Position numbers: made by a program
Assembly (NCBI GenBank): GCA_049515535.1
Contig: JBEKTZ010000003.1
Span: 62,001 to 126,000 of the forward strand
Source: Candidatus Aminicenantales bacterium
Lineage (GTDB): Bacteria; Acidobacteriota; Aminicenantia; Aminicenantales; UBA4085
Length of the DNA stretch: 64,000 bases
Direction of reading: 5' to 3'
Part shown: one piece after another, positions 30,001 to 64,000 of the stretch
Numbering within the stretch: the first letter of the stretch is position 1
Layout of the letters: each line of letters begins with the position of its first letter

Positions 30001-33000
30001 GTATTTGCCCTTGAGCAGCGCCGCGCGGGCCCAAGAGGACGACGTTCTCGCCATTGGCGATAAATCGGCATTCGGCCAGCTCCTTTAGCCGCTTCTTGTC
30101 GATCGATGACTGGAAGGCAAAGTCGAAGCTCTCAAGCGTCTTGACGTAGGGGAACTTGGCGAGCGCAGTTCGGAGGGCGATGTTATTTTCTTGCTTGGAG
30201 GCCACCTCCTGGGAGAGGATCTCGTCCAGGAAGTCGGTGTAGGGAACACTGTTCTTGGCCGCCTCCTCGAGCGTTTCGGGCGCAAGCCAGCGGAGCCGTT
30301 CCTGGAGGTCCTGCAGGATCTGGATGACCGCGCGCTTCCGCCCGCCGTATTTCTCGACGACCTAGCGGACGACAGCACCTCTGTCGTCGGGGAGGGAGTC
30401 TGTCCCGGCGGAACCCGCCTTTTGGCTTTTCCGCTGCATTTCGCGTGTGCCTTATAGAAAAAGCCGAAAGCTTGTCAATGATTTTCCGCGGACTACCGGC
30501 ACCGCTGCCAATCGGATTCGCTGAACGTGCGGTCCAGCTCTCTCCACAGGTCTTTCACGTCGCAGGTCATGACGATCAGGTCCTGAGCGCCGCCTTTGAT
30601 ATCCTTGACGAAGTCGGGCAGCAACGTTTCCTCGCGGAAACCGAGCCGGCGGAAGATCTTCTGGGCCCCGATCTGGGGCCGCATCATCCGGGCCACGATC
30701 GTCTGGATCTGGTTCTGGACGGCGATGAAATAGAGCTCGCGTATCATGATCGTTCCCAAGCCCCGGTGATGAAAAGGCCGGGCGATTATCACGCGGATTT
30801 CCCCCTGGTGCTTGCTCCAGGCTTCCCCCGAGAGCTCCAGGGCTCCGCTGGCCACGATCACTCCGCCGTGGACGGCTACGATCCGGATGTCGTCGCCGGA
30901 ATCGATGCGCCGGAGTCTCTTGGCCACGACTTTCCGGTCCGTGACGTCGAACTTCAGGTATTTCCGGTCCTCTTCGGGCAGGGAGCCGTAAAAGTCCATC
31001 AACTGGTCGATGTCGTTCGCCGCGAGCCTCCGGATCGTCACTTCCGTGCCGTCCTTCATTCTTTCGGTCTTGTCCATGCGCGCGTCTTCCCTTTCTGCGA
31101 GATGTCGTCCATCAATCTTGTTCCTTATTTATATGGAGAAGACTTCGAATTGTCAAGCCGCGGCCGATTGACAGGACTCCGACGCCGGTGCTATTGTGAG
31201 CCGAGGCGGACCGATGCCCATCCGAGAAGTCGTCCGGCGGTTCTTTGATTTGCCCTTGCGGCGCAAGCTCATCCTGAGTTTTCTCATCGTCATCCTCCTC
31301 GGCGGGGTCCTGTCCCTGATCATCGGCACGCGGATCGAACATCAGACCATCATATCCCTGGCCGAAGCCAAGGTCAGGCACGACCTGGCCTCGGCGTCGA
31401 TGGTCTATGATGAACGGCTGCACGGCCTCCGGGACACCGTCCGGCTCAGCGCCACCCAAGAGTTCCTCCGGGCGGCCCTCCGACAGGCGAGCCTCGAAAA
31501 TGCCGCCGTCCGGCTCGACGGGATCCGCCGGGAGTTCGGCCTCGACGTCCTCAACCTCACGGACGGCCTCGGCCGTGTTGTCGTCCGGTCGCGGCACCCC
31601 GAGGCGGCGGTCGGCGACGACGTGTCCGGGGATCCCTGCGTCGCCCTCTCCCGCCGGGGTCAGGTCTGCGCCGGGACCCGCATCGTCACCCGGGACGAGC
31701 TTCTCAAGGAAGGGGACGACCTGGCCGAGCGGGCCTATTTCCAATTCGTCCCGACGCCCATGGCGGCCGCGAGACCCGAAGACCATGAAGACAAGGGCAT
31801 GATGCTCACGGCGGCCGCCCCCGTCCAAGACGAGTCGGGCGGCCTTCTCGGCGTCCTCTACGGCGGACTGCTCTTCAACCGGAATTATGACCTCGTCGAC
31901 CGGGTCAAGGAGATCGTCTTCAAAGGGGAGAAATACAAGGGCCACGACATCGGAACGGCGACCTTGTTCCAGGACGACCTCCGGATCGCCACCAATGTTC
32001 TGGACGACACCGGGCGCCGGGCCGTCGGGACGCGCGTCTCGCGCGAAGTCAACGAAGCCGTCTTGGGCCGCGGCGAAACCTATGTCGGGCGGGCTTTCGT
32101 GGTGACGGCTTGGTACATCACGGCCTACCGGCCGATCCAGGACATCGAAGGCCGGACGATCGGTATGCTCTACGTCGGCATGCTCGAACGACCGTACATC
32201 GACCTGCGGAATAGGGTCATGGCGACGTTCGCTGGGATCGCCGGCCTCTGCGCGCTCTTTCTCCTGGGCTTGCTGTCCTTCGTTGCCCGCCGGATCACCC
32301 GCCCCCTCGGCGTCATGGTCGAAGCCACGGACAAGATCGCCTCGGGAGAGCTCGATCATCACGTCGCCCTCGAAGGCCGGGACGAAATCGGGAGGCTGGC
32401 GAGGGCGTTCAACCGGATGACCGAGAACCTCCGTGGCGCCCGCGAGGACCTGACGCAATGGGGCCTGACGCTGGAGCGCCGGGTCGAGGAGAGGACGCGC
32501 GAGCTCCGCGAAACGCAGGATCAACTCATCCAGTCCGAGAAGCTGGGATCCCTGGGCAAGATGGCCGCGGGTGTCGCCCATGAGATCAATAATCCCCTGA
32601 CGACCATCCGGATCAATGCCCATCTCCAGCTTGAAAAGTGCGGCGACGATCCCACGAGACGGGAGGCCCTCACCCTCATCGCCGACGAGACGGCCCGCTG
32701 CGCGCAAATCGTCAACGGCCTTCTTGATTTCGCCCGCCAGACGCCCTCCCAGTCGGCGCCCTGCGACATCAACGATATCATCGAGCGCACTCTCCAGCTC
32801 CTGGAGAAGCAGGCCTCGGTCCGGAACATCCGGATCGTCAAGACCCTCGACGGTTCCCTCCCGCTCATCCCCGTCGACAAGAACAAGATCCAACAGGTCT
32901 TCTCCAACCTGATTCTCAATGCCTGCGAAGCGATGCCCCGCGGCGGCACGCTGGTCATCACCAGCCGTAGGAGCCGCAACGGAACGGGCCTCGAGATTGC

Positions 33001-63000: not shown

Positions 63001-64000
63001 GGTCAGTCCTTTTCTGCCGGATGCCTCGCATCAATCTGGCTTCACTATAGAAAGGGGCCGGGGAATTGTCAAGCAGTACTGTCAAGCATTTTGTGTGAAT
63101 TCGGCCAAAGGGACTCTTTGGAAGATCGGCAGATTATAGGTTACTTTTCCTGTAGGATTTTTTTTCCAATGCATCTCCATCTTTAGGCTGATGAGCGCCA
63201 GGAGACGATAACAGGCGTTCTCCCCGGCGATGATCTCCATAGTTTTGGTCCTTCGTTTGAACTCCTTGTTGAGCCGCTCAATGATATTCGTCGTCCGGAG
63301 CGCCTGCCATTCCTCCGGAGGAAACGAGATCTTCCGCCCCAATAACTGCTTCGAGATCATCGACTGGCCAGGGTCTTTTTCTCTTTGTAATCGTAAGCGC
63401 GGTATTTGACGGAAGAGCTTCCACAATTGGGGGATAGAATAATCATGGGGTTCTCCTTTTCGGCTCTTCGAGATTACAGCCCGCCGGCCTGCACGGATGT
63501 GATCGCCACGAGGTGGACGATATCGTCCACGGAACAGCCGCGCGACAGGTCGTTGACCGGCTTGGCGATGCCCTGAAGGATGGGCCCGACGGCCTGGGCC
63601 TTGGCCAGCCGCTCGACCAGCTTATAGGCGATGTTCCCGGACTGGAGGTCGGGGAAGACGAGCACGTTGGCCTGGCCGGCGATGGGGCTGTTCGGGGCCT
63701 TGGACTTGCCGACCTTCGGGATGATGGCCGCGTCGGCTTGCATTTCCCCGTCGATCTTGAGGCCGGGGGCCTTTTCCTTGGCGATGGCCACGGCGTTCTT
63801 CACTTTATCGACGAGTTCGTGCTTGGCGCTGCCGCAGGTCGAAAAGGACAGCATCGCCACCTTGGGGTCCATACCGCACAGCACGCGGCCGGTTTCGGCC
63901 GAAGCGATGGCGATCTCGGCCAGCTCTCTTTCATTCGGGTTGGGCATCACGGCGCAGTCGGCGAAGATGAACATCCCCTTGTCGCCGAACTCGCAGTCGG

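Follow-up and report, generated by a model that had tools for sequence, protein, structure and literature searches.

Many anaerobic bacteria carry Mvh-Hdr genes without coenzymes M and B, and the high-potential acceptor in such systems is an open question. In the locus studied here, within a 64,000-nucleotide stretch of a Candidatus Aminicenantales genome (the window), hdr and mvhD genes directly precede a pair of fumarate-reductase-like genes (frdB′ and frdA′). The operon points to fumarate as the acceptor, and it probably lets an anaerobic bacterium couple H2 to fumarate and ferredoxin reduction in one step.

The operon and the block around it

Sixteen genes lie head to tail on the plus strand (36881-53874) in the order mvhG-mvhA-ack-orf-HEAT-hdrC-hdrB-hdrA-mvhD-frdB′-frdA′-korDABC-fum, with intergenic gaps of -41 to +54 bp, and the cluster is a genuine operon. 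ORF calling with Pfam and NCBIfam searches placed them, and every gene named in an earlier note on this DNA was found where and on the strand that it had given. One strong promoter-like site stands ahead of the whole operon, a sigma-70-like sequence (36623..36651, +; 11/12 consensus matches) 230 bp before mvhG, which was identified solely through its likeness to the consensus; 5 sites of this kind turned up where 2.4 would be expected. Contigs from four RNA runs (three studies), mostly 85-95 % alike, together cover the whole operon; they stem from relatives and, as contigs, cannot show transcription.

The first genes encode the small and large subunits of a group 3c-type [NiFe] hydrogenase, mvhG (36881..37846; best model VhuG) and mvhA (37843..39300; closest solved relative 5odc_F, E 1.5e-116), followed by ack, an acetate/propionate kinase with a C-terminal extension (39309..40706; above the TIGR00016 cut-off), a conserved 165-aa protein of no assigned function (40718..41215; no Pfam hit) and a HEAT-repeat protein (41175..43052; Pfam). 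Atlas look-alikes of the 165-aa protein, at 0.93-0.95 to ATC-hydrolase-like clusters, offer a lead only and leave it unexplained. There follow a short hdrC (43107..43514; 135 aa, two [4Fe-4S] motifs; Pfam, NCBIfam), hdrB (43524..44456), a full-length hdrA (44453..46429), an mvhD of the hydrogenase-linked type (46426..46869; Pfam, tree), frdB′ (46862..47641), frdA′ (47645..49318), korD, korA, korB and korC (49339..52226; Pfam, NCBIfam), encoding a four-subunit 2-oxoacid:ferredoxin oxidoreductase, and a class I fumarate hydratase (52264..53874; Pfam, NCBIfam). Gene context suggests 2-oxoglutarate as the Kor substrate; no closer paralogue of korDABC was found in the genome.

Upstream of and divergent from the operon are sucD (33625-34503, -) and sucC (34525-35682 from its likely start, -), encoding succinyl-CoA synthetase (Pfam). 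The earlier note did not mention several genes inside its span: a sensor histidine kinase (680 aa) with a single-domain response regulator (135 aa; pair at 31196..33642, +; NCBIfam), which relatives carry at the same position; nfnB (54037-55539, -) and nfnA (55558-56394, -), a pair scoring above the NF004862 and TIGR01316 cut-offs and named, by inference, as an NfnAB-type transhydrogenase; and a soluble NAD(P)-linked flavoprotein set made up of NuoE-like, NuoF-GltD fusion (1028 aa) and NuoG-like (779 aa) proteins (56391..62388, -; Pfam, NCBIfam). The 3′ half of pta (63474..64000, -) closes the window, the gene running on to contig position 126472.

A direct repeat of a GNAT acetyltransferase gene frames these genes, with a left copy at 30493..31077 (-; Pfam) and a right copy at 62412..62996 (-); the two share 93 % protein identity and 92 % identity over 645 bp, and a 42-codon nuoE remnant (30251-30376) stands after the left gene. 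The block had been described as bracketed by acetyltransferase genes and IS256 pieces. Both are present, as an N-terminal (36142..36504, -) and a C-terminal (63082..63426, -) IS256/Mutator transposase fragment (PF00872) accompany the repeat; however, these pieces do not mark the ends of an element, because they are short remnants, blastn found no further IS256 copy in the genome and close carriers lack them at these places. We therefore rejected a mobile island bounded by IS256. The limits of the unit are better marked by the GNAT repeat, and the 32-kb block looks recently transferred.

The FrdB′A′ pair and the direction of the reaction

The 259-aa FrdB′ had been credited with 2Fe-2S plus 4Fe-4S motifs, and its sequence bears this out with one [2Fe-2S] and two [4Fe-4S] motifs and no CCG domain; both full CxxCxxCxxxC motifs occur in 82-83 of 83 related sequences. 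No NCBIfam match to TfrB was obtained at E 1e-10. For FrdA′, a fumarate-reductase-family flavoprotein, the best NCBIfam model was TfrA (NF004900), at 364 bits against a cut-off of 718, and its scores fall under every Frd/Sdh/Tfr cut-off. Filing the pair as Tfr or as MFR was rejected on cut-offs and domain layout.

The dicarboxylate site of FrdA′ is intact, its active-site His, Glu, Arg, His and Arg being kept in 91/91 sequences. In contrast, none of the 91 has the His for covalent FAD attachment; 90 have Asn (one gap), Asn132 in this protein, suggesting non-covalent FAD. Enzymes without this His lose succinate oxidation, according to the accessible part of PMC2680327, and one-way fumarate reduction is expected here, as for Wolinella SdhABE in the same excerpt. 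A literature search returned no match on the FAD properties of Tfr. Succinate oxidation, which the earlier note had offered as the reverse option, is thus unlikely, and as the main role it was rejected on the absent His.

This bears on an oxidative mode, with 2-oxoglutarate as the substrate of Kor. HdrA would combine, by confurcation, the electrons of succinate with those of reduced ferredoxin, and the H2 made in this way would serve a syntrophic partner. The genome is otherwise complete for oxidative TCA genes (citrate synthase, AcnB, Idh and Mdh), canonical SdhB and SucA were not found in it, and methylmalonyl-CoA mutase, ack and pta are present, all of which would suit such a metabolism. 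Yet non-covalent FAD accompanies loss of succinate oxidation, the energetics would, with substrates at equal levels, allow the reaction only if H2 stood at about 0.1 Pa or less, and 5/12 close carriers also keep a canonical SdhB, which fits a division of labour; we therefore consider this mode very unlikely. The reductive reaction of H2, fumarate and ferredoxin is exergonic (-85 kJ at 1 atm H2 and -12 kJ at 1 Pa), taking ferredoxin at -500 mV and potentials from an excerpt of PMC5861303.

At the position occupied by Phe in SdhA, which we take to be a substrate-pocket residue, FrdA′ has Gly (87/91); with this change and scores below all family cut-offs, fumarate is a presumed substrate. FrdA′ also has a unique N-terminal extension of ~90 aa and a short C-terminus. 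A fold search with the model returned only known Frd/Sdh/flavocytochrome folds (33-38 % identity to solved Frd/Sdh, TM about 0.66) and gave no explanation for the extension. These values, the extension, the altered pocket and the low scores could indicate an enzyme that uses aspartate as substrate or reduces an unsaturated acid other than fumarate, its link to TCA genes being secondary. Set against this are the invariant catalytic dicarboxylate residues, the recurrence of fumarase, sucCD and kor as neighbours and a separate NadB-like gene, named by sequence likeness, on another contig, so that we rate such a role as highly improbable.

Electron input, HdrB and a predicted complex

The hydrogenase large subunit is closest to MvhA and retains both CxxC nickel motifs and its C-terminal extension, and MvhG and MvhD are encoded in the same operon. 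In the MvhD tree, all 24 Flx-linked sequences fall behind one branch (98/96, length 0.93), and the operon's MvhD is placed among those linked to mvhGA. No flx genes were found in the window, and mvhD overlaps frdB′ directly; the hydrogenase of the operon is group 3c-type, standing in for Flx.

HdrA has the full cluster set, including an inserted ferredoxin domain, and its E366/K419 correspond to E356/K409 of the solved bifurcating enzyme, a signature kept in 36/36 related HdrA proteins. Excerpts of PMC12054007 and PMC9430772 describe the pair as a mark of bifurcating HdrA; however, since most HdrA proteins have it, it is weak proof of bifurcation.

No HdrB-type gene other than the operon's hdrB was found in the genome. 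Its ten CCG cysteines are kept (65-66 of 66 per position in related loci), whereas His154 of the methanogen heterodisulfide site is replaced by Arg and is present in 0/66 HdrB of related loci. This residue has been proposed to donate the proton when the disulfide is reduced (10.64898/2026.08.25.746951, in part). HdrB scored 148 bits with the Hdr model (cut-off 345) and 135 with the MFR SdhE model (cut-off 500), below both cut-offs. The available part of PMC2680327 offers a precedent in Wolinella SdhABE, whose ten-Cys HdrB-like subunit lacks CoM/CoB activity.

A modelled complex of HdrB, HdrC and FrdB′ scored 0.82, against 0.00 for the best of three controls, a mark that 116/157 solved pairs and 2/215 mismatched pairs reached and that is rough here, own alignments having been used. 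Contact agreement between runs was at least 94 % and partner pLDDT at least 76. In the model, FrdB′ docks on the distal cluster of HdrB and the HdrC tail, with FrdB′ C128/C131 beside HdrB C9/C41, and HdrC and FrdB′ occupy HdrB simultaneously. The predicted FrdB′-HdrB interface involves FrdB′ residues 114-162 and HdrB residues 8-13, 38-43 and 54-61. The high score could also arise if the model had learned how HdrC binds HdrB and placed that contact a second time, on the second CCG half of HdrB, and the predicted arrangement fits one large complex as well as two complexes sharing HdrB.

We favour, at roughly 55 %, the reaction 2 H2 + fumarate + 2 Fd(ox) -> succinate + 2 Fd(red) through direct contact of FrdB′ with HdrB. 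The proposed soluble enzyme, MvhAGD-HdrABC-FrdB′A′, would oxidise H2 at MvhAG and pass electrons via MvhD to the HdrA FAD, where, judging by the conserved signature, each pair would be split. The low-potential electron would go to ferredoxin, or directly to KorD, and the high-potential electron through HdrC, HdrB and FrdB′ to the FAD of FrdA′, where fumarate would be reduced; HdrB would be a docking and relay subunit, not a CoM-S-S-CoB reductase. Three unrelated genes between mvhGA and hdrC count against this reading. Together with fumarase, SucCD and Kor, this could carry malate via fumarate, succinate and succinyl-CoA to 2-oxoglutarate; alternatively, it could dispose of electrons in fermentation, with reduced ferredoxin used by Nfn or a membrane-bound group 4 hydrogenase. 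The earlier proposal of an Hdr-linked, H2-driven fumarate reductase feeding Kor is thus the best reading of the residues, MvhD tree, gene order and docking, its bifurcation and complex formation still being predictions. More tentatively, the eight subunits may form a single thiol-free, quinone-free H2:fumarate, ferredoxin oxidoreductase, with HdrB as a wire devoid of disulfide chemistry.

The HdrB clusters probably lie a long way from each other when no substrate is bound, and a thiol in the cleft may thus remain necessary. The main rival builds on such chemistry: as in Methanothermobacter, for which Heim reportedly described a thiol:fumarate reductase, TfrAB, in 1998, MvhAGD-HdrABC would reduce ferredoxin together with a disulfide, either DsrC or some small thiol, and FrdA′B′, having an HdrB(C) copy to itself, would re-oxidise the thiol with fumarate, the net chemistry being the same and the wiring indirect. 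The ten retained cysteines, TfrA as best model and a docking model also compatible with a split Tfr suit this arrangement, and the option is named in Rubin-Blum 2019 (PMC6315080, supplement) and in an excerpt of Mitchell 2024 (PMC11636981). The genome also encodes a DsrC with both C-terminal cysteines (a DsrC match occurred in 5/5 genomes searched, the sequence being read for this one only); however, dsrC lies ~94 kb from the operon beside its own DsrM-like and DsrK/HmcF-like partners, His154 is missing throughout and the model has HdrC and FrdB′ bound to HdrB together. On balance, a shuttle appears unlikely.

Distribution and relation to known systems

In GTDB, 80 loci were kept, 61 of them with at least 6 kb upstream, the 10-kb flanks making all counts lower bounds. 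Across these 61, frdB was adjacent in at least 58, hdrB in 48, hdrC in 46, hdrA in 29 and mvhD in 24, followed by FlxD-like genes (at least 13), mvhA (at least 10), fum (at least 7), sucC/D (at least 6) and kor (at least 5). These independent counts give a picture like that of the metagenome loci in the earlier note.

In 19 of the 61 loci, hdrCB stands without hdrA (hdrC-hdrB-frdB-frdA alone), and in a further 13 both are missing. Two annotated loci without hdrA and hdrCB adjoin multihaem cytochromes and NrfD, which indicates that FrdB′A′ can do without HdrA. The absence of HdrA from half of the loci had been raised against the proposal; it weighs less than stated, because HdrA-type genes lie elsewhere in 16/16 tested genomes with hdrCB-only loci, although HdrA is widespread among anaerobes.

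Such loci are pertinent to a type E-like alternative, in which FrdA′B′-HdrB(C) would be fed by quinol or another carrier and HdrA-MvhADG would be separate or loosely linked, with no bifurcation towards fumarate. The second [4Fe-4S] cluster, ten-Cys partner and non-covalent FAD match the Wolinella MFR. A MenA-like gene is present, though it scores below cut-off, as is a cluster for complex I, so quinones may be available. Canonical SdhB, MenD, MqnA/D and Rnf were not found in this 94 %-complete genome, which supports the favoured reading. The missing MenD and MqnA/D, the higher score of HdrB with the Hdr than with the SdhE model, the wedging of hdrA-mvhD between hdrB and frdB′ and the HdrA-type genes in all 16 hdrCB-only genomes make this arrangement improbable.

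Close carriers share the operon's gene order; in 12/14, mvhA and frdA′ share a contig and are 8.3-8.4 kb apart, and in the other two they are on separate contigs. Among all 80 loci, mvhA was present in 12, each with mvhD directly before frdB′, and in 6/12, including the distant phyla Fermentibacterota and KSB1, frdB′A′ is flanked by mvhD on one side and mvhG-mvhA on the other; in these two phyla the genes make up a compact unit of eight. mvhGA-linked loci fall into two separate clades of an FrdA′ tree (FastTree, 88 rows, many incomplete; short or X-containing rows left out). Relatives in the same taxonomic order mostly show the published Flx layout, hdrC-hdrB-korDABC-hdrA-flxDCBA recurring, and one (L034) has flxABC in the gap where this genome has none.

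That layout is the published order (Table S1) in tubeworm symbionts and Thioflavicoccus mobilis (PMC6315080; PMC11636981, in part), for which Rubin-Blum 2019 proposed a bifurcating Flx-Hdr-Tfr-Kor complex with NADH as donor, a prediction with co-expression data only. Compared at the level of genes and their order, the present operon has the same hdrC, hdrB, hdrA, mvhD/flxD, four-subunit kor and frdBA-like pair, and the chemistry proposed for the two is alike, with fumarate and ferredoxin/Kor as the branches of the bifurcation. It differs in lacking flxABC, with MvhAG giving H2 instead of NADH, and in having kor after frdA′, outside hdr. aclAB, too, is absent from the block; on another contig, a citryl-CoA lyase above cut-off, of ambiguous substrate, has a SucCD-like pair and LeuC-type hydratases as neighbours.

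The cytochrome-free methanogen MvhADG-HdrABC (PDB 5odc) shares the six subunits, HdrA signature and clusters, MvhA nickel motifs and ten HdrB cysteines, whereas here the host is bacterial, HdrB lacks His154, HdrC is short and the Frd pair follows mvhD. Methanothermobacter TfrAB is likewise a soluble flavoprotein and iron-sulfur subunit tied to a CCG protein and gives the best model; in contrast, FrdA′ falls far under the TfrA cut-off and FrdB′ has no fused CCG domain. Going by excerpts of PMC2680327, the likeness to Wolinella SdhABE and type E SQOR (second [4Fe-4S], ten-Cys HdrB-like partner, non-covalent FAD) is offset by a periplasmic, quinol-fed MFR there and, here, by co-encoded HdrA, MvhD and hydrogenase and MFR models far below cut-off. 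Moorella/Sporomusa MetVF-HdrCBA-MvhD (PMC5861303, PMC9430772, in part) also joins an HdrCBA-MvhD block to a terminal flavoenzyme, with another enzyme and donor and an enlarged HdrA; in Sporomusa, contacts were seen by pull-down and bifurcation is proposed, not shown. Thermosulfidibacter takaii, considered as a precedent, was dropped for want of support in the literature excerpts. The portions seen of PMC11287216, PMC11237513, PMC12542636, PMC7325909 and PMC9324843 contain no hydrogenase-Hdr-fumarate reductase operon, and that of 10.1101/2024.09.26.615249 gives STRING links only.

Judged by its genes, the operon appears to be the H2-fed counterpart of a cluster that others have already published as a proposal, the idea of the chemistry itself not being new. 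Over the NADH version, it adds a second donor type, arguments on direction at the level of residues and a compact system for expression and structural work, with a predicted FrdB′-HdrB interface. If the coupling holds, the step that wastes most in the reductive TCA branch would pay for one of the hardest, with H2 as the only donor. If the single-enzyme reading is also true, one class of bacterial Mvh-Hdr complexes would gain, in fumarate, the high-potential acceptor that it has lacked. Together with the group 4 membrane hydrogenase, the enzyme would allow fumarate respiration without quinones. FrdB′A′ would be a plug-in module that has been exchanged among inputs from H2, NADH and cytochromes, with a 32-kb block carrying it from one family to another.

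Operon structure and published precedent

ORF calling and family scans bore out the gene table of the earlier note. Sixteen + strand genes make up the operon, the first being mvhG (36881) and the last the fumarase gene (53874), with intergenic gaps of -41 to +54 bp; a sigma-70-like site (36623–36651; 11/12 consensus bases) precedes them. It includes an FrdB-like iron-sulfur protein (46862–47641, here FrdB*) and a flavoprotein of the fumarate reductase family (47645–49318, FrdA*). Three genes, for a C-terminally extended Ack, a 165-aa protein and a HEAT-repeat protein (39309–43052), separate mvhA from hdrC in all close carriers, i.e. 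relatives of the same order with a close form of FrdA*; in locus L043, this trio sits after frdA* instead. sucCD and a two-component pair are positioned to the left of the operon, and to its right, on the - strand, are NuoE-like, NuoF-GltD fusion (1028 aa) and NuoG-like genes (56391–62388) followed by nfnAB, a set which we take to be akin to Stn/Nso-type transhydrogenases. The NuoF-like protein of genome G026 has 617 aa and lacks the GltD part. Operon, sucCD and the Nuo/Nfn set form a ~32-kb block between two GNAT acetyltransferase copies; left of it are genes for a PFL-family glycyl radical enzyme and its activating enzyme (23949–27221) and, 15 kb away, a XerC/D-like tyrosine recombinase (13923–14837) with no visible tie to the block.

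The operon matches, in a variant form, a prediction already in print. Rubin-Blum 2019 (PMC6315080) proposes a complex of the kor, tfr and flx-hdr gene products in which NADH electrons are bifurcated to Kor and fumarate reductase; a passage of Mitchell 2024 (PMC11636981) adds co-expression, from which tfrAB deviates, and one of PMC13147460 restates the proposal as untested. The published donor is NADH, whereas the window encodes a predicted hydrogenase-fed version, for which searches of an open-access library gave no published description.

Subunits and the predicted electron path

We consider H2-driven bifurcating fumarate reduction with direct docking the most likely reading, with a probability of roughly 55 %. 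Bifurcation at HdrA would give 2 H2 + fumarate + 2 Fd(ox) -> succinate + 2 Fd(red), for which the computed energy yield, using potentials from a passage of PMC5861303, is -85 kJ at 1 atm H2 (-12 kJ at 1 Pa, ferredoxin -500 mV). The nearest solved relative of MvhA is the methanogen MvhA, both nickel motifs are intact, and HypD and two maturation proteases are encoded elsewhere in the genome. HdrA aligns end to end with the solved MvhADG-HdrABC complex (5odc) and carries E356/K409, kept in 36/36 HdrA relatives; this pair is described as the mark of bifurcating HdrA in passages of PMC12054007 and PMC9430772, though most HdrA possess it.

FrdB* has motifs for one [2Fe-2S] and two [4Fe-4S] clusters and no CCG domain. 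When HdrB, HdrC and FrdB* residues 19–259 were modelled together (40-row alignment for each), the complex scored 0.82 and the best of three controls 0.00; the score mark is reached by 116/157 solved and 2/215 mismatched pairs, counts that are only roughly valid here. Contact agreement between runs was at least 94 %, partner pLDDT was at least 76, and the score was lost when HdrB was swapped out. In the model, the FrdB* ferredoxin domain (114–162, with C128 and C131) rests on HdrB 8–13, 38–43 and 54–61, which contain distal-cluster ligands, and also touches the HdrC C-terminal helix. The docking may echo the solved HdrC–HdrB contact, and the model lends support to a putative chain HdrA-HdrC-HdrB-FrdB*-FrdA*.

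A thiol shuttle, which would leave the net reaction unchanged, is a rather unlikely alternative. HdrB, the only HdrB-type protein found in the genome (two LdhH-like proteins and a DsrK/HmcF-like one make up its remaining CCG set), retains all ten Cys, and Arg replaces His154, the proton donor proposed for disulfide reduction in a passage of 10.64898/2026.08.25.746951; His occupies this position in 0/66 related HdrB. The best candidate carrier for such a shuttle is the genome's DsrC, which has both C-terminal Cys and is encoded with a DsrM-like membrane protein and the DsrK/HmcF-like protein (L134:7340–9655); DsrC matches were found in 5/5 genomes searched.

The FrdA* model has the Frd/Sdh fold (pLDDT 83, TM about 0.66) and a 90-residue N-terminal extension. 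That FrdA* acts on another substrate is the most doubtful of the alternatives. The protein matched no Tfr, Frd, Sdh or NadB model above cut-off; the catalytic dicarboxylate residues are all kept in 91/91 sequences. The FAD-binding His is Asn in 90/91 (one gap), and, according to a passage of PMC2680327, the enzymes missing it (Wolinella SdhABE, His variants of the E. coli and yeast enzymes) have lost succinate oxidation; we regard an oxidative direction as very doubtful.

Gene order among relatives and origin of the block

A GTDB genome scan returned at least 590 FrdA* relatives, of which the best 80 were retained; the nearest named carriers among these are Ca. Aminicenantes records (88–93 %), and the host probably belongs to that group as well. 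Sixty-one of the retained loci extend 6 kb or more upstream; frdB* adjoins frdA* in 58 of them, and nearby genes include hdrB (48), hdrC (46), hdrA (29), mvhD (24), a FlxD-like gene (13), mvhA (10) and kor (5). By type, these loci are hdrCB only (19), Flx-like (13), frdBA only (13), mvhGA (10) or hdrA without visible donor (6). HdrA-type genes occur elsewhere in 16/16 hdrCB-only genomes, drawn from 23 hdrCB-only loci, the one locus type covered. mvhD lies directly 5' of frdB* in all 12 mvhA-bearing loci among the 80, and six of them (Fermentibacterota and KSB1 included) have the order mvhD-frdB*-frdA*-mvhG-mvhA, with the frdB*A* pair as an insert in an ordinary hdr-mvh operon.

Order-wide, the FrdA* type occurs in 80/121 genomes and the close form (84–100 %) in 15, source genome included; in 12 of the 14 others, mvhA lies 8.3–8.4 kb from the FrdA* gene. 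Among 18 relatives' loci, two have the window layout, two lack a gap, two are uninformative and 12 read hdrC-hdrB-korDABC-hdrA-mvhD, a gap of 2.6–2.9 kb, then frdB*A*; the gap is annotated in one locus, as three Flx-type genes, and the other 11 were called Flx from its size alone. In a 45-row tree, 24 Flx-linked MvhD fall behind one long, well supported branch and the window MvhD among mvhGA-linked ones; kin share labels here, though the group covers several phyla.

Other arrangements were also seen. In L107:7571–16367 and L057:3451–11674 (Desulfomonilaceae, KSB1), hdr genes are absent and the pair is flanked by genes for multihaem c cytochromes, NrfD and a molybdopterin enzyme, a cytochrome-wired form. 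Deltaproteobacterial loci L078–L082, L086–L088, L090 and L098 possess several hdrA, full and permuted, with mvhD and a FlxD/FrhB-like gene directly 5' of frdB*A* and often sucCD next. In L042, L044 and L047 (G038, G025 and G033), kor and hdr genes are split into several frameshifted pieces, probably by sequencing errors.

The operon has 63.5 % GC vs 56.8 % for the genome (sd 4.1; 5-kb windows); five close carriers show no such difference between block and flanks. Contig C42 (31,798 bp) of G113, from another family, is 100.000 % identical to window 30755–62552 and ends within both GNAT copies, but G113 matches the left flank at only 66–77 % over longer matches. In close carriers, the genes run fum...mvhG, sucCD, regulator, kinase, one GNAT, nuoEFG, nfnAB; in the window, the Nuo/Nfn set is on the opposite side, and the left GNAT is followed by a nuoE remnant. 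Recent transfer of the block is the most economical explanation; alternatively, the source genome or G113 may contain a binning or assembly error.

Metabolic setting

The genome (94 % complete) encodes two citrate synthases, AcnB, Idh, Mdh and methylmalonyl-CoA mutase; searches of it yielded no canonical SdhB, SucA, MenD, MqnA/D or Rnf. Because SdhB and SucA were not found, FrdA*B* and Kor are the sole candidates found for their TCA steps; canonical SdhB accompanies FrdA*B* in 5/12 close carriers. A separate, quinol-fed type E-like enzyme is improbable. The genome also encodes a Hox-type hydrogenase and a group 4 membrane [NiFe] hydrogenase (C5:153585–163602) whose CxxC motifs are intact and which is accompanied by antiporter-like subunits and a maturation protease. 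A further cluster (L131:2882–11156) holds a SucC-like/SucD-like pair, a citryl-CoA lyase above cut-off, an HD protein, two LeuC-type hydratases and a beta-decarboxylating dehydrogenase; it may represent a citryl-CoA route or serve a different tricarboxylate.

The operon holds up as genuine and well conserved and would be a good subject for biochemistry; the cell may use the predicted H2-driven reaction for 2-oxoglutarate synthesis, CO2 fixation or as an electron sink.
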